64,000 bases of DNA. Origin: an uncultured bacterium (GTDB lineage Bacteria; Patescibacteriota; Minisyncoccia; UBA6257; 2-01-FULL-56-20). Under the pieces are notes generated by a model. That model ran no database searches. It worked only from the letters and a program-made list of their open reading frames with translations, and was not told the origin of the DNA. Position 1 is the stretch's first letter. Each line of letters opens with the position of its first letter. Below, piece by piece: positions 8,892 through 64,000 of the stretch. A program made the translations under genes and the position numbers. The stretch spans positions 396,305 through 460,304 of the forward strand of contig OY970175.1 in the NCBI GenBank assembly GCA_963707865.1. The letters are read 5' to 3'.

Positions 8892-9323
8892 GAGCCTTGC
8901 GGCTCCATAACTCTTTCGAGCTATGACCCATAGGAGGTTGCTGAACGCGGGGTTCAGTATCTCCTATGGGGTTTTGAGCCATGCCAAGCGATGTTTGGTT
9001 TAGGCTATACAATCCGATATTGAATTGTTAAGAAAACTATACCGCTTGCGACCTTTCCCGTCCAACCCTAGCTTAGATCGTAGGCGTTGCGAAGGGGGAA
9101 GTTATCAACTTGCCTCATTCGGCATTTCGTCGCCCCGTAATGAAGCACGTTCCTAACGATTCTCAAAAAACTTGACAAATGTGGTGTTATTATGTTAAAC
9201 TTACAGCGTTCCTTAACAATGGAAAATTCAAGGTTTCCAGTGAAATGAGGCGAGCGTTGGGGAAGGCAATCAATGTGGCTTCTCGAACACTCGCCTCATA
9301 ACCTGAGCGGGTAGAAATGGAGG

Positions 9324-26370: not shown

Positions 26371-26476
26371 AGGTATCCCGTTGGACTTTGTTTTGGAGAG
26401 CATCCCGGAGCCACGGCGGCTTGAAGCAACCTTTAGGTTGCTTGCCGTGGCGAGGGCGAGCGGCGTTTTCCCGCCG
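26371..26476 (+). repeat. structured repeat family B, copy 1 (upstream of dnaE)
   Basis: It is about 85% identical to 61884..61988. The differences are concentrated in two stems and are compensatory. Confidence 0.6.
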
Positions 26477-26607
26477 GAGAAAACGACCGCGTCTCCATAA
26501 AGGGAAATCTGGCGAAGCGATCACTATCTTTTTAATGAATGGTTTAGTATCATGTAATAGAAATTTAATGTTCTGCATCCTCGCTTGCGGGGGCAACATC
26601 AAGAACA

Positions 26608-32282: not shown

Positions 32283-32520
32283 GCGCACAGGCCTGGATTC
32301 GAACGGAGGAATAAGCGTCCCTTTCCACTTTTGGGAAATCTAGCGGAGTGGCGAGGAAAATCAACGGGGCATAAGCTGCCTGCCCGCCTTTGCGAACCGT
32401 GCGGAGGCCGAGCTAAAAATCCGCGAGCGAAAAGAAAATCCGCCGGGTGCCCCCGCCGAAGGCGAGAGGGTGGCAGATTTTCGTTGCGAGCGGGTTCCGA
32501 AAAAGCGGAAGGGGTGCTTA
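32283..32520 (+). repeat. repeat family A, long copy A (head motif + core), 3' end overlaps greA stop
   Basis: It has the head motif GCGCACAGGCCTGGATTCGAAC, and its core shares the sequence cccccgccgaaggcgagagggtggca...gggttccgaaaaagcggaagggg.gcttattctatc with copies B and C. Confidence 0.65.
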
Positions 32521-37580: not shown

Positions 37581-37830
37581 GTGCACGGGACAGGATTCGA
37601 ACCATAGATAGTTCAGAGTGGAAGATCTGAGAGCAAACACAAAAGAAAAGAGCGCCCTCCTCCGCTTTTGAGGAACCTAGCGGAGGCGAGGAATAAGCGC
37701 GCTCCGAGTGAGCAGAAAATTTGACGGGACCCCCGCCGAAGGCGAGAGGGTGGCAAATTTTCGTAAGCGAGCGAGGAGAGCGCCCGAGCCGAAGCGGGTT
37801 CCGAAAAAGCGGAAGGGGGCGCTTATTCTA
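37581..37830 (+). repeat. repeat family A, long copy B, 3' end overlaps secY stop
   Basis: It has the head motif GTGCACGGGACAGGATTCGAAC and a conserved 165-nt core. It ends gcgcttattctatcc, which supplies secY's final codons (IE) and stop. Confidence 0.65.
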
Positions 37831-46955: not shown

Positions 46956-47513
46956 TTATTTTCTTATCTCAAGCAGCCCACCGCGCGCGCCCGGCACGGC
47001 GCCGCGGAGGAATATCAAATTTTTTTCTTTATCAACGTCCGCCACCACAAGATTCTTGATCGTCACCCGCTCCGTGCCCATATGCCCCGCCATACGGCGA
47101 CCGGGTACGACGCGCTGGAACGCCGTGGAACCGATGGAACCTGGCGCGCGGAAACGGTTCTTCTGCCCATGCGTCTTCGGCCCACCGTGGAAACCGTGCC
47201 GCTTCACGACACCCTGGAATCCGCGTCCTTTCGTGAGCCCGCTCACGCGGACTTTTTCGCCGGCCGCGAACGCTTCCACCGTCACCGCATCGCCCACCTT
47301 GAACTTTCCCATCTCGATCGGATGCCACTCGCGGTTTCTAAATTCACGCTTCGTCTTTCCAGCCGAAATCTGAATGGCTTCATAGCCATCTTTATCTTTA
47401 CTGCGTACCGTAGTCACCTTGTTTGGCTCCGCATGGATCACGGTCACGGGAACCACCTTCCCGTCTTTCCAAATCTGCGTCATTTTAAGTTTTTTGCCGA
47501 GAATAAATGACAT
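46956..47513 (-). CDS. rplC: 50S ribosomal protein L3
   Basis: It has the L3 signature. It is the first gene of this block and is not preceded by rpsJ. Confidence 0.85.
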   Translation of the reverse strand: MSFILGKKLKMTQIWKDGKVVPVTVIHAEPNKVTTVRSKDKDGYEAIQISAGKTKREFRNREWHPIEMGKFKVGDAVTVEAFAAGEKVRVSGLTKGRGFQGVVKRHGFHGGPKTHGQKNRFRAPGSIGSTAFQRVVPGRRMAGHMGTERVTIKNLVVADVDKEKNLIFLRGAVPGARGGLLEIRK

Positions 47514-47696
47514 GGAACAAAAAACCGGCTCTTCGCCGGAAGTTCATGCAAATATCCGACCAAACCCTGCCCTCAAGCGGGGTCGTCCTTCACAAAAACG
47601 AAAGACGTCTTCCGAGGCGCCAAAGCGCGATAGATATTGGCATAAAACTTCCGAGGAAACCTTAGGGAAAAGTATAACAAAACAGGGCCCGCCGTG

Positions 47697-48005
47697 TCAA
47701 TTGATCGGCAAAAGCCGGCGTTTAAAGGCGTCGAATTCCTCACAATCCACCTTTTTATCCAATATTTCTATGATGCGCGTGAACCATCCTTCCATCTCGT
47801 TTTTGGTAGGCAACATCGCGATTTTCTGTTCCAAAGCGTCCATACGCCCCTCAACTTTATCCAATATCTTGCCAACAGCAATATAGCCTTCCAGAGTTAT
47901 TTTGAATTTCGCCTCTGTTTCCTCAAATAAAATCATCGTCTTCGGATCTTTGACGGGAAACGTGAATGTTTTCGTAAGATGCCGGACCTCAATCGCCTTT
48001 TCCAT
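47697..48005 (-). CDS. small coiled-coil protein, paralog family member 1
   Basis: It is similar to 48122..48400 and 60699..60980, sharing an ...E.KF.....EG......K.D... pattern. Confidence 0.4.
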   Translation of the reverse strand: MEKAIEVRHLTKTFTFPVKDPKTMILFEETEAKFKITLEGYIAVGKILDKVEGRMDALEQKIAMLPTKNEMEGWFTRIIEILDKKVDCEEFDAFKRRLLPIN

Positions 48006-48121
48006 ATTTCGTCAGTATAAAGGGTAAAACGTTTCTCTCCAAGAAGGAGCGTGAACGCGATCAAACCGCCTTTCCTCGATGCTCTCCATTAATCCTTGCA
48101 ATAGTGCTCCGTAAATTACCT

Positions 48122-48400
48122 TCACCCACGATCCTGTCTTCCCAACTTTATCGCAATGACGTCCAATCGGGCATCCATCTTATCAAACCGCTCAATTAAA
48201 TAATCAAACTTATAATCTATCTCCTCAAACTTTTTATTCATCGAAACTTCCACATTGTCGAATTTCTTATGCAAGGCTCCGAAACCTTCCATCAACAGCC
48301 TGAACTTGGTATCAATTTCTTCGTAAAGCACTCCCAACTTTCGCTGGTTTTTATCCAATCGCCCTAGTTCCAGTTCAACAGAAACTCTTTCCATAACCAA
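48122..48400 (-). CDS. small coiled-coil protein, paralog family member 2
   Basis: It is a paralog of 47697..48005. The family A head motif lies 55 nt upstream of its start. Confidence 0.4.
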   Translation of the reverse strand: MVMERVSVELELGRLDKNQRKLGVLYEEIDTKFRLLMEGFGALHKKFDNVEVSMNKKFEEIDYKFDYLIERFDKMDARLDVIAIKLGRQDRG

Positions 48401-48491
48401 ATCTTAAAAGGTTGGGCAAAATAGTCAAAGGTTCTTTAATAATTTTTTAATCCTGTGCACAGGCCTGGACGATTTTCGAACGATTTTAGGC

Positions 48492-48830
48492 CTAATATGG
48501 CCGATAAAGAAATACGATTGCTAAGACAATGATTATCCCAATGACGGCGGTAATCCCGTGTATCCACCGCAGCAATGTTATACGCTTCTTAATGTTTATA
48601 TCTCGTGCAAGAGATTCGTGTGTTTCGGCAAATTGTATAAAGTATCCAAATCGGAGATTGATGATCCCCTTACTGAGCGGGAGAATTTTATAGAGCACCG
48701 GCTTTTTATATTCTTCCCAATCGGCAGGGTGAGATTTTTTGAAATAGGACTTCAGGCTTCCCCATAAAATGAAATGGGCTATTACGAGCAGCACGAATAT
48801 TCCACCTAAAATGGCCATTCCCAGATTCAT
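48492..48830 (-). CDS. small membrane protein (2 TM)
   Basis: It has hydrophobic N- and C-terminal helices. A head motif lies 39 nt upstream of its start. Confidence 0.4.
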   Translation of the reverse strand: MNLGMAILGGIFVLLVIAHFILWGSLKSYFKKSHPADWEEYKKPVLYKILPLSKGIINLRFGYFIQFAETHESLARDINIKKRITLLRWIHGITAVIGIIIVLAIVFLYRPY

Positions 48831-48915
48831 ATGACTATTCTATCACAAGCTCTAAAAACAAAATCATAGCGCACCGGCCTGGACGATTTTCGAACAGTTC
48901 TGATTGTGATGCAGG

Positions 48916-49182
48916 TTGGCAGATGATAAACTAGATAGCATGGATTGGCGGAATACCCCGGTGCGAGCTAGTTGGGGCATTAGTTACTTTCAGCGAGCCG
49001 TTATTGGATTGGCTTTAATTCTCATTGGGGTTATATCCAGCGCCTTCGTTCAATTCCTATCTGGACTCTTCCTTGGAATAGATTTAGACCCTTTCACGGC
49101 TGGTCTTATTGGGGTGTTGATTGTTGGGGTTGTGATTCTGATTTACGCCGTTTCTCTCAATTTTCACAAGAGAAAGAAATAG
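48916..49182 (+). CDS. small membrane protein (2 TM)
   Basis: It has two hydrophobic helices. Confidence 0.35.
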   Translation: MADDKLDSMDWRNTPVRASWGISYFQRAVIGLALILIGVISSAFVQFLSGLFLGIDLDPFTAGLIGVLIVGVVILIYAVSLNFHKRKK

Positions 49183-49265
49183 CAACATAACATGCACAGG
49201 CCTGGACGATTTTCGAACGATTCTTTCTCTTTCCCAATATCTAGGGAATTGTAGTCTTTTCTAAG

Positions 49266-50268
49266 ATGTTTCATGTCCGCACATTTGTCCCCTCGATAGC
49301 TTGAAGATATTCAACCGGCGTCTTTCCCGCAAGGGCAAGATGAGGACAGACCGTGTTGTACCAGGCGCAGTACGCGGCCTGTTTTTGTTTCGCTTCGGCC
49401 ACCGTGCGGAATGATATCTTGTTCCAGAACCGTTCGCGGTCATTGCGATGCGACCGCTCCACCTTGCCGTTCTGCGCAGGATGCCCCGGGGCGATGAGAT
49501 AGTGCGTCATTTTTTGTTTTTCACAAGTAACATCAAAAGGATGCAACCGCGGCTTCAGGGGATCTGCTGACTTCGGATATCCCACGTACCGGTTCGTGAA
49601 GATTGATCCGTTATCGGTCTTCACCGCACGGATGCGGAAGGGTGCCGTAGCAATGACTTTCTCGAGAAACAAGATCGCGGTCCGCGTGGATTGTTCTTGG
49701 GTCACCCAGAGATGCCGCCACCGCGTGCAGCAATCAATCGCGGTGAACTGGTAGAGCCATTGCCCCTTGAATCTCCGCACATAAACGACATCAATCTCGA
49801 TGATCTCTCCGGGAAACGTGGCGGTCGGTTTCCACTTTGCTTTGGGCACCAACCGTTTTTTGGTTCTTGAGAGCCCCTCACGTTTCAGGACTTTGGCAAT
49901 ACCCCGCACGGAGAGCTTCAGGCCCTCGCGGGCGAGGAGATACATGAGGACATCAGGACCCAGATCCGTTGCTGTTCGCAACGATCTGATCCGATTCACG
50001 ATGGTCTGTGAGAATTGTTTCGGATGCGTGTGCGGCCTGCGCGAGTGCGACACGAGCGCATCGATCCCGCCCCTGCGATATGCCGCCACCCACCGCTTGA
50101 GCGTGCGATATGAAAACGGCGCGTGGGCAGCAATGTCCTTGATACTCATCTCTTTCTCAAGATGCGGGGTGATCCACCGCATCCGTTCCTCTGCTGCGTC
50201 TTTTGCGAGTGTTTGTGGCATATTCCCCAGCTTACACTTCAAGGGGCCATATGTATGTGCAGAGTACC
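49266..50268 (-). mobile_element. IS481-family insertion sequence (~1.0 kb) with imperfect terminal inverted repeats
   Basis: A single DDE transposase is flanked by GGGGACAAATGTGCGGACAT (left end, reverse complement) and GGGGCCATATGTATGTGCAG (right end). Confidence 0.6.
49271..50221 (-). CDS. IS481-family DDE transposase (rve integrase core)
   Basis: It has an N-terminal HTH and a DDE core (IDVVYV...AVKTDNGSIF...HPAQNGKVERSHR). Confidence 0.75.
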   Translation of the reverse strand: MPQTLAKDAAEERMRWITPHLEKEMSIKDIAAHAPFSYRTLKRWVAAYRRGGIDALVSHSRRPHTHPKQFSQTIVNRIRSLRTATDLGPDVLMYLLAREGLKLSVRGIAKVLKREGLSRTKKRLVPKAKWKPTATFPGEIIEIDVVYVRRFKGQWLYQFTAIDCCTRWRHLWVTQEQSTRTAILFLEKVIATAPFRIRAVKTDNGSIFTNRYVGYPKSADPLKPRLHPFDVTCEKQKMTHYLIAPGHPAQNGKVERSHRNDRERFWNKISFRTVAEAKQKQAAYCAWYNTVCPHLALAGKTPVEYLQAIEGTNVRT

Positions 50269-50358
50269 AAGAAGAATTGACTACGAGCAATATTTATGCT
50301 ATAAATCCTCGCAGAAAGACGCACTATCGGAATCAAAACTTAAAAGGAAAGGTGCCTT

Positions 50359-51249
50359 ATGAGTCAAATTAATGTGGTCGTTCCGGATGGTTCCATGCAG
50401 GCCGTCATTACCGACCTTTTTGCAAAGGCAGGGTTGCCTGTGGCGATAGAGAAAAGACGGACGAAAGAAGGTAGGGTCGGGGTTGACTGGATCAAGCGAG
50501 TTGCCTTCCAGAGGCCGCAGGAAATCCCGCAATATCTCGACGCCGGTCATTTTGACGTTGCCGTCGTGGGCGAGGATTGGATCGCTAACTGGGGCTTAAC
50601 ATTCCCCGTTCTGCTCAAACTGCCCATCGGCCGCAGCGGCAACAAGCCCGTCAAAATCGTTCTGGCGGTGAATCAAGCCAGTGGTTTTCGACGGGTGGAA
50701 GAGCTGCCTCAAGGCTGTGAAGTGGCAACTGAATACGTCCAACTAGTCGAGAGGTTCTTCGCTAGGCAGGGAAGGGCTGACATCGAGGTTGTCCCATCCT
50801 TTGGCAACACCGAACACAAGATTGGATTCGGTGCGACGGCAATCGTTGACGTGACAGAGAGCGGCGATTCTCTGAAAGAAAATGGACTCGAAGTGATTCA
50901 CGAAATAATGGAGTCCAATACCGTTGTCGTGGCGAACCATGATTCGCTGGCCGATGAATCTAAGCGTCCATACATCGATTGTCTCGTCCAACTCATCAAG
51001 GGTGCATTTCAGGCATCGCAACACGTAATGCTTGTAGCCAATGTACCCAAGAAGGTTCTGGGCGATGCGAGTCGCATCATCGGAGGACTCAAGGGGCCTT
51101 CCTGTTCGCCGCTCATGGGTATCATAGGATGGTTCGCCCTCCAATCTGTTGTGGCTCGAAAAGACGAACAAAAGATAATTTTCGAGTTGCTGCAGATAGG
51201 AGTCACCGACATCCTCGTTAATCGAGACATTCCCTTGATGATGTCTTAG
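50359..51249 (+). CDS. hisG: ATP phosphoribosyltransferase (long form HisG)-like
   Basis: It contains EIPQYLDAGHFDVAVVGEDWI and AIVDVTESGDSLKENGLEVI, which resemble the HisG catalytic core, and has a C-terminal regulatory-like domain. Confidence 0.55.
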   Translation: MSQINVVVPDGSMQAVITDLFAKAGLPVAIEKRRTKEGRVGVDWIKRVAFQRPQEIPQYLDAGHFDVAVVGEDWIANWGLTFPVLLKLPIGRSGNKPVKIVLAVNQASGFRRVEELPQGCEVATEYVQLVERFFARQGRADIEVVPSFGNTEHKIGFGATAIVDVTESGDSLKENGLEVIHEIMESNTVVVANHDSLADESKRPYIDCLVQLIKGAFQASQHVMLVANVPKKVLGDASRIIGGLKGPSCSPLMGIIGWFALQSVVARKDEQKIIFELLQIGVTDILVNRDIPLMMS

Positions 51250-51348
51250 ACGCCGCAAAGGCAACATGGCTTTCGGGCGGTCGCCAAATCATAAAGTACC
51301 GCCCACAACACACCACCTCAGACGTGGTGTTGCGCATTTTTATATTTT

Positions 51349-51590
51349 GTGCGCAGGCCAGGATTCGAACAACTAATCTCATTAATATAAACCGTGCCGG
51401 CAGGGGTGTTGGGGTCTCCTGTGTTTTTGTTTTCGAAGAACCTAGCGGAGGCGAGGAATCAGCGCTCTCCGAGCGAGCAGAAAATTTGACAGGACCCCCG
51501 CCGAAGGCGAGAGGGTGGCAAATTTTTGTAAGCGAGCGAGGAGAGCGCCCGAGCCGAAGCGGGTTCGAGAAAACAAAAACACAGGAGACC
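51349..51590 (+). repeat. repeat family A, long copy C (between hisG and rpsJ terminator)
   Basis: It has the head motif GTGCGCAGGCCAGGATTCGAAC and a core almost identical to copy B (cctagcggaggcgaggaat.agcgc...gggttc). Confidence 0.65.
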
Positions 51591-51618
51591 AAAAACTCCC
51601 GCCGAAGCGGGAGTTTTT
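51591..51618 (-). terminator. rho-independent terminator immediately after rpsJ
   Basis: The minus-strand RNA reads AAAAACUCCCGC UUCG GCGGGAGUUUUU, starting 1 nt after the rpsJ stop. Confidence 0.7.
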
Positions 51619-51619
51619 G

Positions 51620-51949
51620 TTAGACCATTTTCACTTCCACGTCCACCCCGGCGGGAAGATTGAGGTTCGTGAGCGATTCAATGATCTTCTGGCTCGGATT
51701 CAGGATCTCCACAAGGCGCTTGTGCACGCGGAGCTCAAATTGTTCGCGCGAGTCCTTATGGACGAAGGTTGATCGGTTCACGGTATAGTGCCTGATCTCC
51801 GTGGGCAGCGGAATCGGACCGTTAACCTTCGCGTCGTTCCGTTCAGCGGTCTCAATGATCTGGCGCGCCGAATTGTCAATCAGCTTGTGGTCGTAGGATT
51901 TGATCCGCAACCGGATCTTTTGTGGCGTTTCCGATTCCTTCTTTGCCAT
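51620..51949 (-). CDS. rpsJ: 30S ribosomal protein S10
   Basis: It contains [27 protein letters not shown] and lies immediately downstream of tuf. Confidence 0.9.
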
Positions 51950-51950
51950 A

Positions 51951-53150
51951 TTATTTGATGATCTTTGTAACCGCGCCGGCGCCTACGGTGTGGCCGCCTT
52001 CGCGAATGGCGAAGCGCTGTTTGTCCTCAAGCGCGACCGGAGAGATAAGCTTCACAGTGATTTTCACGGTGTCGCCTGGCATTACCATCTCCATGCCCTG
52101 CGGCAAGGTTACTTCACCAGTCACGTCGGTCGTCCGGATATAGAACTGCGGCTTATAGCCCGAGAAGAACGGCGAGTGCCTGCCTCCTTCCTCTTTGGAA
52201 AGCACGTACACCTCCGCCTCAAATTCAGAGTGTGGCGTGACGGAACCCGGCTTTGCAATCACCTGACCGCGCTCAACATCCTCTTTCTTCAATCCGCGGA
52301 GCAGGGCACCGATGTTGTCGCCCGCCATGCCTTCATCCAAAAGCTTGTTGAACATTTCAATACCCGTGATGACGGTCTTCGCCGTTGGCCGAAGGCCCAC
52401 GATCTCAACCTCTTCGTTCACTTTCACTTTCCCGCGCTCTACGCGGCCGGTTACGACCGTGCCGCGGCCCTCAATAGAAAAGATGTCTTCAATCGGCATG
52501 AGGAACGGCTTATCAATGTCGCGGACCGGCGTCGGAATGTAGTCGTCCAGGGCCTTTACGAGATCCAAGATCGGCTTCGCGTCCGGGTCGTCCGGCGATT
52601 TCACATTCAATGCCTTCAATGCAGAACCACGGATAACGGGGGCGCTGTCGCCGTCAAAGTGATATTTCTTCAAGAGCTCGCGTACCTCGGATTCCACGAG
52701 ATCAATCAATTCCGGATCGTCCACCTGGTCGCACTTGTTCAAGAACACCACGATCTTCGGCACGCCCACCTGATACGCAAGCAGGATGTGCTCGCGTGTC
52801 TGCGGCATCGGACCGTCGGTCGCAGCGACCACAAGGATCGCACCGTCCATCTGGGCGGCACCCGTGATCATGTTCTTGATGTAGTCCGCGTGTCCCGGTG
52901 CGTCAATGTGCGCGTAGTGCCGCTTCTCCGAAGAATATTCAGAGTGGTGTAGCGCAATGGTAATACCGCGCGCTTTCTCTTCGGGAGCATTGTCAATCTG
53001 GTCAACGCCCTCTTCTTTCTTGGCCAGACCCTTCATGAACAAAATGTGTGTGATCGCGGCGGTCAAGGTCGTCTTTCCGTGATCCACGTGCCCGATCGTG
53101 CCCACGTTCACGTGCGGCTTGGATCGGTCAAATTTTTCTTTTTCTGCCAT
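51951..53150 (-). CDS. tuf: elongation factor Tu
   Basis: It contains the G-domain motifs [15 protein letters not shown] and NKCD. The start was trimmed to MAEKEKF. Confidence 0.95.
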
Positions 53151-53283
53151 ATTGTTGTTTGTTAATTTTTTTATTTTGACCCGCGTCACTTCGCAAAAAA
53201 GCAATAGCCAATCGACCTAAAACACTCCCTTGCGAAGGATAACAAAAGCTATTGTACTCCCTACGCCCCCGCGCGTCAAATCC

Positions 53284-53449
53284 GCAGAGCCCATTCCAGA
53301 ACGCAGCAGCATGAGGATTATAAATCATTTTCGAGCGAGCAACGTGAATCCCGACGAAGGAATACCCTTGTGGTATTGCGAGGAGGGATTCGCGTTGCGC
53401 AGCCGAAAATGGACATAAGAGTCATACGGCTACGTTCTGGAATGGGCTC
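53284..53449 (+). ncRNA. candidate structured RNA: 18-bp outer stem enclosing nested hairpins, followed by T7 run (between rplU and tuf)
   Basis: The arm agagcccattccagaacg (53286-53303) pairs perfectly with cgttctggaatgggctct (53421-53438), and a ttttttt run follows. An inner stem pairs cgtgaatccc with gggattcgcg. Confidence 0.35.
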
Positions 53450-61867: not shown

Positions 61868-62008
61868 GCGCATGAGCGTTGGTTTTTCGGAGCATCCCGG
61901 AGCCGCAACGGCTTGAGGCGACCCTCAGGTCGCCTGTTGCGGCGAGGGCGAGCGGCGTTTCCCCGCTGGAGGAAACGACCGCGTCTCCGAAAAACCAACG
62001 CTCATGCG
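61868..62008 (+). repeat. structured repeat family B, copy 2, enclosed by a 25-bp perfect outer stem, abutting fusA stop
   Basis: The core 61884..61988 matches copy 1. The outer arms are gcgcatgagcgttggtttttcggag and ctccgaaaaaccaacgctcatgcgc. Confidence 0.6.
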
Positions 62009-64000
62009 CTAGCGCTTCTTCCCCTCTATAATAAGCTGCGCCACGTTCTGCGGCGTCGGCTCATAGTGATCAAATTCCATAGTAAACGAACCACGGCCCT
62101 GTGACATTGAACGGAGCTCGGTCGCATAGCCGAACATTTCGGAAAGCGGGACTTTCGCGTCAATCACCTTCAGCCCCGGCCGGTCACCAAGCGATTCGAT
62201 GCGGCCACGCTTCGCATTCAATTGTCCGGTCACTTCGCCCAAAAAGTCCGGCGGCACAAGCACCTGCAATTTCATAATCGGTTCCAAAATCACTGGCCTC
62301 GCGCGCTTCGCGGCCTCCTGGAACGCAATGGAACCCGCGATTTTGAATGCCGCCTCCGAGGAGTCCACTTCGTGGAACGAACCGTCGTACAAAGTCACCT
62401 CAACGTCCGTCACGGGATAGTGCGCGAGAATTCCTTTGTCCAGCGCTTCCTTCACGCCCTTCTCTGTCGCCGGAATGAATTCATGAGGGATAACGCCTCC
62501 TTTGATCTCATCCAGAAACACAAAACCCGTTCCGCGCGGAAGGGGCGTCACGCGGAGCCATACATGTCCGTACTGACCGCGGCCACCGGACTGACGGATA
62601 TACTTTCCTTCCGCTTCCGCCTCGCCCATAATTGTTTCTTTGTATGCCACTTGAGGCCGGCCCACGTTCGCTTCCACGCCAAACTCCCGCTTCATGCGAT
62701 CCACAATAATCTCCAAGTGTAGCTCGCCCATGCCAGAAATGATCGTCTCGCCGGTGTCCGGATCCCCCGCCACCCGGAAAGTCGGGTCCTCCTCGGCCAA
62801 ACGGTGCAGGGCTGTGCCCATTTTTTCCTGGTCTGCCTTTGTTTTCGGTTCAATGCGGATACCGATCACGGGTTCGGGGAAAGTGATGCGCTCCAAGACG
62901 ATGGGCGTTTCTGGATCGCAAAGCGTGTCCCCTGTCGTCGTATTTTTCAAACCAACGATCGCCGCAATCTCGCCCGCATAAACCTCTTCCACCTCCTCGC
63001 GATCGTTCGCATGCATGCGGACCACGCGACCGATGCGCTCCTGGTTGTTCTTGGTGGAATTCAAAATGTACGAACCGCGCTTCAGGACGCCGGAATAGTT
63101 TCTGAAATATGCGAGCGTGCCTACGTAAGGGTCGGTCGCGATTTTGAACGCGAGTGCCGAGAACGGCTCTTCGTCTTTTGGATAGCGCTCCACCTCTGCA
63201 CCCGTCTTTAGGTCGTGGCCCTTCACAGGTGGCAGGTCTGTCGGCGCCGGCAAGTATTCAACCACCGCATCCAGCACGAACTGCACCCCCTTGTTCTTCA
63301 ATGCCGAGCCGCAGAAGACCGGTACGATCTTGTTCGCGATCACCGCTTTGCGCAGCACGCGGCGAAGCTCTTCAATACCGATCTCCTTTCCGTCCAGATA
63401 TGCTGCCATCGCTTCGTCGTCGTTTTCAGCAATTTTTTCAATCAGCTCGTGGCGGCGCTTTGCAATGTCTGCCTTCATATCGTCCGGGATCGTGATTTCA
63501 ACTATCTTCTCACCATGCTCGCCCTCAGAGGTATATGCCTTGTTTGAAAGGAGGTCTACGATCCCCTTAAAATTTTCTTCCAAACCGATTGGCAGCTGCA
63601 CCGGGATGGCATGCGGCGTGAGCCGGTCAAGAATTGATTGAAAACTCCCCATAAAGTTCGCGCCCATCCGATCGAGTTTATTGATAAAGCAGATGCGCGG
63701 CACGTTGTATTCGTCCGCATAGCGCCAATTCGTCTCCGACTGCGGCTCAACGCCCGCGACACCGTCAAACACGACGACTGCGCCGTCGAGAACCCTAAGC
63801 GACCGCTTCACCTCTACCGTAAAGTCAATGTGTCCCGGCGTATCAATAAGGTTGATGCGGTGCTCATACTTTTTGTCGTGGTTGCGGTAGGTCGGCGTCC
63901 AGAACGCGGTCGTCGCGGCGGACGTGATCGTAATGCCGCGCTCGCGCTCCTGTTCCATCCAGTCCATCACGGTATCCCCCGTGTGCACCTCGCCGATCTT
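62009..64000 (-). CDS. fusA: elongation factor G (N-terminus beyond window end)
   Basis: It contains [17 protein letters not shown] and conserved domain IV-V motifs. The frame is open at position 64000. Confidence 0.9.

Follow-up and report, generated by a model that had tools for sequence, protein, structure and literature searches.

The analysed window, a stretch of 64,000 nucleotides (nt) from a genome of the Patescibacteria (Minisyncoccia/Paceibacteria), contains a ribosomal-protein locus in which rpsJ (S10) and rplC (L3) are separated by a gap of 4,106 nt (47514-51619); this gap and the RNA leader encoded directly ahead of rplC are described here. The genes on both sides are on the minus strand. 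Upstream of the gap lie tuf (EF-Tu, 51951..53204, recognised by Pfam GTP_EFTU together with domains D2 and D3) and rpsJ (51620..51949, Pfam Ribosomal_S10, E 4.5e-35), which is the final gene of a tuf-rpsJ transcription unit; on inspection of the sequence, the TAA stop codon of tuf and the ATG of rpsJ are 1 nt apart. A tufA-rps10 arrangement is known from cyanobacteria and plastids. Downstream of the gap, rplC (46956..47513, from the list of open reading frames (ORFs), Pfam Ribosomal_L3) opens the rplC-rplD-rplW-rplB-... unit. A strong and symmetric intrinsic terminator, AAAAACTCCCGC-TTCG-GCGGGAGTTTTT (51591..51618, minus strand), follows rpsJ, as the initial annotation of this stretch had described. 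In the canonical bacterial S10 operon rpsJ abuts rplC, with neither terminator nor promoter between them, and the present locus is not of this kind. The contiguous second rpsJ-rplC copy that had been considered possible is absent from the 64-kb window. The ~4 kb of accessory DNA reported between the two genes is present, and every feature listed for it was found at, or a few bases from, its given position. The G+C content across 47.8-49.2 kb falls to 0.38-0.45, compared with 0.52-0.60 in the flanks.

The rplC operon has a predicted sigma-70-type promoter (47671..47700, minus strand) composed of TTGACA, an 18-nt spacer and TG-n-TATACT, from which transcription would start near 47664. The stop codon of an upstream ORF of 102 amino acids (aa) falls inside the -35 box of this promoter. 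In a single-sequence fold, the region between the promoter and the gene forms a structured leader of ~150 nt (47514..47663, minus strand). Its modelled helix P1 pairs a 5' strand at 47654-47640 (CUCGGAAGUUUUAUGC) with a 3' strand at 47552-47537 (GCAUGAACUUCCGG) and encloses two hairpins, P2 and P3. An attenuator or terminator hairpin (CCGGC GAAGA GCCGG followed by UUUUUU; 47518..47540, minus strand) ends 5 nt before the rplC ATG. The P1 3' strand ends in CCGG, and these bases also belong to the 5' arm of the terminator, so that the two helices are mutually exclusive, as in an attenuator. The rplC gene itself (ATG 47513) has no Shine-Dalgarno sequence, and the U-run of the terminator abuts its start codon.

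For comparison, 80 loci around rplC homologues (62-99% identity) were taken, and tuf, rpsJ, rplC and rplD were located in each. The best rplC matches are found in the metagenome-assembled genomes JBEKRC010000003 (locus L001, 99% L3 identity), OY970382 (L002, 96%) and JBEKML010000002 (L041, 87%). The promoter of the window recurs in 39 of 81 sources as TTGACA-N17-TGcTATAmT followed by the leader start AAGGTTTCCTCGG (type 1); in the same 39 sources the extended -10 promoter is followed, after 5-7 nt, by the invariant leader start AAGGTTTCCTCGGA.GTTTTATGC. The initial annotation had called for a new rplC promoter within 47514..47696; a promoter is indeed found within 47514-47700 (at 47700..47671), but its presence in 39 sources speaks against its being new. 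A second leader type, with the order CTCTTTAATGG-hairpin-TTTCACAAGGAYAGCC-terminator, is present in 26 more distant loci, and its promoter (TTGACA-N17-TAnnAT) is placed at a fixed distance of 39-41 nt upstream. A dedicated rplC promoter and leader are found in 65 of the 81 sources, and several of the remaining ones are truncated contigs.

The fold of the type-1 leader is conserved together with its promoter. P1 is the minimum-free-energy fold in 33 of 35 leaders of relatives truncated at the terminator arm, and the two failures are truncation errors. The strands of P1 covary (CGGAAG/CUUCCG, CGGAC/GUCCG, CUGGAG/CUCCGG), and RNAalifold recovers both P1 and P2 from 12 leaders of equal length. The same 12 seed leaders were used to build a covariance model, R1, which gives one match per locus, always on the rplC strand and just upstream of the gene (39 matches at E ≤6e-4), and none elsewhere in 1.37 Mb. 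In the alignment fitted to this model 85.7% of the cells are paired, against 33-57% in slid controls, with 7 pairs showing double changes, and no shuffle equals the observed covariation score. Of the 35 type-1 leader cores, the majority have the hairpin together with its U-run. Rfam 15, searched at E ≤5 with the leaders of the window, L041 and L056, returned no family match, and nothing was found in the literature on ribosomal leaders in Patescibacteria. As far as it can be read from these predictions, this is a conserved antiterminator/terminator leader ahead of rplC, previously uncatalogued, and a candidate attenuator of the L3-L4 operon.

The leader also contains a putative upstream open reading frame (uORF), MPISIALWRLGRRLSFL* (47590..47643, minus strand), the AUG of which (47643-47641) lies in the P1 5' strand. 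Of 39 leaders, 38 keep this ATG, preceded at 4-6 nt by a GGAG/GGAAG element; among the 38 leaders examined from the window and its relatives, it begins an ORF of 14-42 codons in 37. For the spacing between the AUG and the P2 3' arm there are 12 length classes, of which nine (31, 34, 37, 43, 46, 52, 55, 73 and 76 nt, comprising 33 of 37 sequences) have one frame in common; the binomial probability that at least 8 of 11 further classes are in frame is ~0.009, with the classes treated as independent. The uORF consensus is M(P/Q/R)I..G(R/K)R.SFSLDP(A/V), and the common frame ends in ...SPFSLDP(A/V) and its stop codon is placed in the loop of P3 (the copy in the window stops earlier). The consensus shows no repeated regulatory codon class of the sort that would indicate sensing of charged tRNA. 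The type-2 leader has a 5'-proximal mini-ORF as well, mostly of 7 codons and beginning MD....

The separation of rpsJ and rplC is not restricted to the window. Fifty-five relatives have rpsJ upstream of rplC in the same orientation, with gaps of 75 nt up to 5,720 nt (median ~870 nt); the gap exceeds 100 nt in 53 relatives and 2 kb in 11, is below 100 nt in 2, and is both ≥870 nt and gene-bearing in 27. A further 17 loci extend for 2.2-10 kb upstream of rplC without any rpsJ. A strict scan places a hairpin and T-run no further than 75 nt from the stop codon of rpsJ in 35 of these relatives, and several more can be recognised by eye. In the short-gap relatives L041 (250 nt) and L014 (264 nt) the rpsJ terminator stands almost back to back with the rplC promoter. 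The initial annotation had interpreted the gap as an insertion into a highly conserved gene junction, which does not agree with a separation that is a property of the lineage. It had also stated that a split shared by relatives across the lineage would mark the arrangement as ancestral, and, apart from the two gaps under 100 nt, this is what is observed. Because the terminator, the promoter and the leader are kept even in relatives with a gap of ~250 nt, the rpsJ/rplC boundary and the rplC promoter are very probably ancestral and only the cargo is new, the interval 47.7-51.6 kb being a hypervariable accessory islet between the tuf-rpsJ and the rplC-rplD-...-secY units. The locus is, in its predicted signals, a pair of insulated transcription units with a variable islet between them. 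On this reading the arrangement is alike throughout the Paceibacteria-level clade of Patescibacteria, with rpsJ closely coupled to tuf and an intrinsic terminator behind it, and with a strong predicted sigma-70-type promoter and a leader of ~150 nt ahead of rplC. DNA that lands between the rpsJ terminator and the rplC promoter would disturb neither unit, and cargo would therefore build up and be lost there.

Homology between the window and its closest relatives (76-92% nt identity in the flanks) breaks at the edges of the gap: for L001 and L041 it ends at 51588-51621 and 47683-47688, while for L002 it ends at 51591 and 47943, the latter because L002 keeps a coiled-coil gene. The rpsJ terminator, kept in L001 and L002, is the conserved right-hand edge of the islet. 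The DNA between the edges is strain-specific, in agreement with its earlier description as accessory. At the same site L041 has nothing (250-nt gap), L002 has one coiled-coil gene (128 aa) and L001 has an ATP-binding cassette (ABC) ATPase with two ABC-2 permeases. The gap cargo of other relatives is unrelated and includes D-Ala-D-Ala ligase (Ddl), LiaF-like and BacA proteins, an Eco57I/MmeI-type restriction-modification methylase, a reverse transcriptase and a NUDIX protein. In the subclade L017-L029 the tuf-rpsJ junction is also opened, by 0.4-2.4 kb (e.g., L022 4759-5723 and L029 3375-5776), so that rpsJ is alone between two variable gaps; the recurring genes of its rpsJ-rplC gap encode a 334-359-aa protein of no known family, a coiled-coil protein, LiaF-like proteins and Ddl.

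A trace of turnover in the window is the ORF of 102 aa (47697..48005, minus strand), which is a fusion of an L001-type and an L002-type gene. Its residues 1-21 and the 70 nt upstream correspond to the N-terminus of the L001 ABC ATPase (84% nt identity), and residues 22-102 to the 3' part of the L002 128-aa coiled-coil gene (95% aa identity), the in-frame junction being at ~47940 (GATCC|GAAGACG). An ancestor therefore had both genes, and a deletion removed the transporter operon together with the 5' end of the coiled-coil gene. A second coiled-coil ORF (48122..48400, minus strand; 90 aa from ATG 48394) clusters with gap ORFs of L002, L020, L025 and L027 and represents a small-protein family recurring in the rpsJ-rplC gap of relatives; a database homologue search gave just one other relative. 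Homology to the upstream region of the coiled-coil gene in L002 extends over 48418-48459, and a promoter-like site is present at 48428..48401. The 90-aa gene appears to be leaderless (its -10 box, TAAGAT, ends at 48401). Both coiled-coil genes had been annotated as paralogues, and both ORFs are present, but the paralogy is weak (32% identity over 63 aa, E ~1e-4) and one of the two is a chimera.

The two remaining small ORFs have membrane-protein features: one of 88 aa (48916..49182, plus strand) has two hydrophobic segments and one of 112 aa (48492..48830, minus strand) has hydrophobic N- and C-terminal segments. No homologues or family matches were detected for either. The defence library PADLOC gave nothing for the small ORFs and the hisG gene described below, and the phage library PHROGs gave just one weak coiled-coil match, to a family of unknown function. 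Exact-protein look-ups with rplC, the 102-aa chimera and the 112-aa ORF found none on record. Overall, the cargo is a patchwork of a hairpin repeat, a wandering hisG, an intact IS481-family element, two orphan membrane ORFs, a coiled-coil gene and a deletion-fusion ORF. Judged by these comparisons, it is recent and turning over, with both gain (the insertion sequence (IS) and hisG) and loss (the ABC operon) apparent within roughly 90% nt identity.

The IS481-family element that had been proposed for the gap, with terminal inverted repeats, occupies ~1,004 bp (49267..50270, minus strand), and its ends agree with the positions first given. The transposase has 316 aa from ATG 50221 (ORF 49271-50221) and matches Pfam rve, rve_3 and LZ_Tnp_IS481; the NCBIfam IS481 model (NF033577) scores this DDE transposase at 233.4 bits, above its cutoff of 224. 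More than 100 homologues are 314-316 aa long, and one is annotated as Candidatus Portnoybacteria. Alignment with three related copies (L091-L093) places the ends at ~49267 and 50268-50270, with imperfect terminal inverted repeats of ~26 nt (TGGTACTCTGCACAT... / ...ATGTGCGGACATGAAACA). The single DDE transposase, the size of ~1 kb and the imperfect terminal repeats are those of the IS481 family; the element differs in having no detectable target-site duplication, and its nearest protein relative is 71% identical. A duplication had been suggested as a check at the flanks (49266 and 50268), and no convincing one was found there, TCT alone being repeated. The IS interrupts an imperfect palindrome of 12 bp (49251-49262 / 50273-50284). 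The palindrome was considered as the IS ends and discarded on the basis of the related IS copies; it is target sequence and not an inverted repeat. No second copy of the IS is present within the window, and a plasmid search with the IS region gave no match.

Between the IS and the rpsJ terminator lies a long-form hisG (50359..51249, plus strand, opposite to the operon; Pfam HisG and HisG_C), with a predicted product of 296 aa, ATP phosphoribosyltransferase, which would convert ATP and 5-phosphoribosyl diphosphate to phosphoribosyl-ATP. The long-form assignment made earlier is borne out by both curated models (TIGR00070, 127.5 against a cutoff of 75.75; TIGR03455, 60.8 against 40.05) and by the presence of the catalytic and the C-terminal regulatory domains. 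Patescibacteria-type organisms are thought to be without amino-acid biosynthesis. The gene had been called an orphan; it is indeed solitary, but this is a habit of the clade and not a peculiarity of the locus. Orthologues 72-86% identical are common in Patescibacteria, and no other his genes were found beside hisG here or in four other, unrelated orthologue neighbourhoods. A solitary long-form hisG is kept at 65-86% identity across Patescibacteria (loci L082-L090), on which nothing was found in the literature. One orthologue adjoins a serine recombinase, and a homologue of 412 aa (P0044) has a HisI (phosphoribosyl-AMP cyclohydrolase, PRA-CH) domain fused to it. Nucleotide homology to other copies does not reach beyond the ORF with its ribosome-binding site (50333-51249), and hisG appears to move as a bare gene. 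The exact hisG protein is on record on one contig of 898,885 bp and also on a short contig from an independent Logan assembly (L081); the latter agrees with 50239-51521 at 100% identity and supports the joins between the IS end, hisG and the adjacent repeat A.

Repeat A (51413..51590, minus strand) is a hairpin element closed by a stem with a perfect terminal inverted repeat of 22 nt. It is 93-95% identical to 37666-37808, with copies at ~37640-37815 and ~32340-32515 that have the same core and different closing stems, and it is missing at this site in L001 and L002. The gap had been reported to contain one copy of this family and three solo head motifs, and all were found: the long-form head motifs lie at 48455..48481, 48869..48895 and 49192..49218 (all plus strand). 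A short form, GTGCGCAGGCCAGGATTCGAAC, is present at 51349..51370 (plus strand). This motif of 22 or 27 nt, G(T/C)GCACAGGCCTGGA(CGATTT)TTCGAAC, occurs in the window at 32283, 36915, 37581, 48455, 48869, 49192, 51349 and 61810, always on the plus strand, and is found in the nearest relatives only; three copies bracket the membrane ORFs. On the minus strand it resembles the 3' half of a tRNA (T-loop and acceptor 3' strand) without the 5' half. A real tRNA was rejected, as this half is missing and ARAGORN makes no call, and so were an attachment (att) site, a promoter and a terminator, the spacing to genes being inconsistent and the occurrence limited to the nearest relatives.

Two families of long hairpins are located directly 3' of minus-strand genes, one comprising 51413-51590, ~37640-37815 and ~32340-32515, the other 61868-62009 and 26387-26501. 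Their cores are conserved and their long closing stems differ, so that pairing is kept while the sequence is changed, which suggests structured 3' untranslated RNAs or elements resembling miniature inverted-repeat transposable elements. Neither family has an Rfam match. A nearly perfect palindromic insert of 166 nt (53284-53449; 36-nt arms, predicted -93 kcal/mol) is located between an L21-like gene and tuf, where L001 and L002 have ~5 nt. The window also contains a match to LOOT RNA (Rfam RF03000) at 8892-9006 (minus strand; 85.6 bits against a gathering score of 46.4).

The origin of the islet can be explained in other ways. Contiguity of rpsJ and rplC in most bacteria (PMC3616713), the absence of the cargo from the closest relatives and the presence of an intact IS would all suit a recent, IS481-driven insertion of ~4 kb that split a contiguous operon and left rplC-secY with a newly gained promoter. 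We regard such an event as very improbable, as the promoter, the leader and the rpsJ terminator are kept at gaps of 250-300 nt and across two leader types, the gap exceeds 100 nt in nearly all relatives, and the IS, with no duplication at its target and no second copy in the window, accounts for just 1 kb of 3.9 kb of cargo. The distance of only 88 nt between the IS and hisG, the four motifs in the islet resembling tRNA 3' ends and the serine recombinase adjoining hisG in one relative could also indicate that a single mobile unit, i.e., a genomic island or composite transposon, delivered hisG and its neighbours. With a single copy of the IS, with neither an integrase nor direct repeats at the islet ends, with hisG homology that stops at the ORF, segments of different G+C content and separate counterparts in L001 and L002, and with head motifs in one orientation that occur also far outside the islet, delivery in one piece seems quite improbable. 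An IS and several repeats are typical places for a misjoin, and the contig is metagenome-assembled; a chimeric join is nonetheless barely credible, since both flanks are collinear with L001 and L002, the L081 assembly is identical through hisG, the junction of the chimeric ORF is in frame with homology on both sides, and a single contig of 898,885 bp is on record with the identical hisG and transposase proteins.

With regard to the leader, P1 in the nascent transcript would sequester the CCGG arm of the terminator and allow read-through into rplC, and when P1 is blocked the terminator would form and transcription would stop. An agent acting on the P1 5' strand would thus favour termination; it could be a ribosome that begins translation at the uORF or a bound ribosomal protein, for instance L4, and the outcome would be negative feedback on the L3-L4-L23-L2... 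operon. As the uORF starts inside the P1 5' strand, loading of a ribosome would tip the balance to termination, and we tentatively propose a ribosome-mediated sensor, at somewhat less than even odds. Nearly as probable is the alternative that the leader is an autoregulatory RNA that binds a ribosomal protein, with L4 or L3, for example, promoting termination and the uORF being incidental. The position ahead of the L3 and L4 genes, the leader terminator, the conserved multi-helix fold, the precedent of L4-mediated attenuation (PMC3616713) and the variable second position of uORF codon 2 are consistent with protein binding. The near-invariant ATG with its GGAG-like element, the frame kept across nine indel classes, the 5'-proximal mini-ORF in the type-2 leader and the lack of similarity to any Rfam leader argue against it. 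A general scheme, in which a uORF-initiating ribosome melts the antiterminator in Paceibacteria-type Patescibacteria, so that transcription of ribosomal-protein genes is throttled by the abundance of free ribosomes, and in which the terminator-promoter pair makes rpsJ|rplC a safe harbour for accessory genes, would combine both parts of the locus, and as a whole we consider it unlikely.

Several observations weigh against the account of an ancestral boundary with a translated, attenuating leader. The alignment used for the pair counts was fitted to the model and is biased towards structure, most of the covariation resides in two P1 pairs, and P2 varies on one side only. RNAalifold finds no structure in the raw MAFFT alignment of 35 sequences, because this alignment is too gappy. 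The hairpin of the L017-L029 subgroup is followed by an interrupted U-run, which makes termination doubtful there. Three length classes break the uORF frame, the peptide overlaps the P2 and P3 stems and its codon 2 varies at the second position; conservation of the peptide may be a by-product of constraints on the RNA. Translation itself, and not the peptide sequence, may be selected, or the uORF may be incidental. The promoter, the start site, termination and translation of the uORF are all read from sequence. At the boundary, the most distant short-gap relatives, L050 (81 nt) and L062 (75 nt), indicate that near-contiguity exists in the wider group, and because of them the polarity of the change at the deepest node is unsettled.

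In general, the insertion is ordinary in its context, and the conserved module ahead of rplC, which is not in Rfam, is the more interesting result. The adjacency of rpsJ and rplC, often assumed for ribosomal-protein marker blocks, fails in this large uncultured clade, where an interruption of 4 kb at this position should not be taken as a misassembly or a recent catastrophe. In these genomes of <1 Mb it provides a natural and neutral landing pad for DNA. The promoter-leader-uORF-terminator module offers a testable candidate for the control of ribosomal-protein genes in organisms without most known regulators, and R1 can be used to find the leader elsewhere.

The islet has counterparts in other lineages. 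In Gammaproteobacteria, multigene insertions occur at the operon borders of the ribosomal supercluster, e.g., bfd-bfr-hopD between the str and S10 operons of Salmonella (PMC6735719). As in the window, the accessory genes are placed there at a terminator/promoter boundary within a translation-gene cluster that is otherwise collinear, and the flanking operons are intact. The boundary described here lies one gene further in (rpsJ/rplC), its content varies at the species level, and the islet holds an IS, decaying gene fragments and dispersed repeats. In Archaea the uS10 gene is as a rule apart from the uL3-uL4-uL23 cluster (PMC10833476), and in neither case does S10 open the L3 cluster; the present arrangement is bacterial, S10 travels with tuf, and rpsJ in most cases keeps the strand of rplC and lies no more than a few kb upstream of it.

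The leader resembles two groups of known attenuators. The E. coli S10 leader, which is located upstream of rpsJ and confined to Gammaproteobacteria, combines L4-dependent transcription attenuation with translational control (PMC3616713). Both have a structured 5' leader with an intrinsic terminator just ahead of the gene that opens the L3/L4 operon, and feedback is expected in both. The leader of the window differs from the E. coli type in its position upstream of rplC, in matching no Rfam sequence or structure, and in two features missing from the E. coli leader, an explicit antiterminator/terminator pair and a conserved putative uORF. With the leader-peptide attenuators of trp, his and pheA it shares a short, putative 5' uORF, an antiterminator and a terminator helix that exclude each other, and an intrinsic terminator ahead of the first structural gene. 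Unlike in those systems, a run of regulatory codons is missing, the antiterminator strand itself contains the start codon, and the genes downstream encode ribosomal proteins, so that the signal would be the availability of ribosomes and not of charged tRNA.

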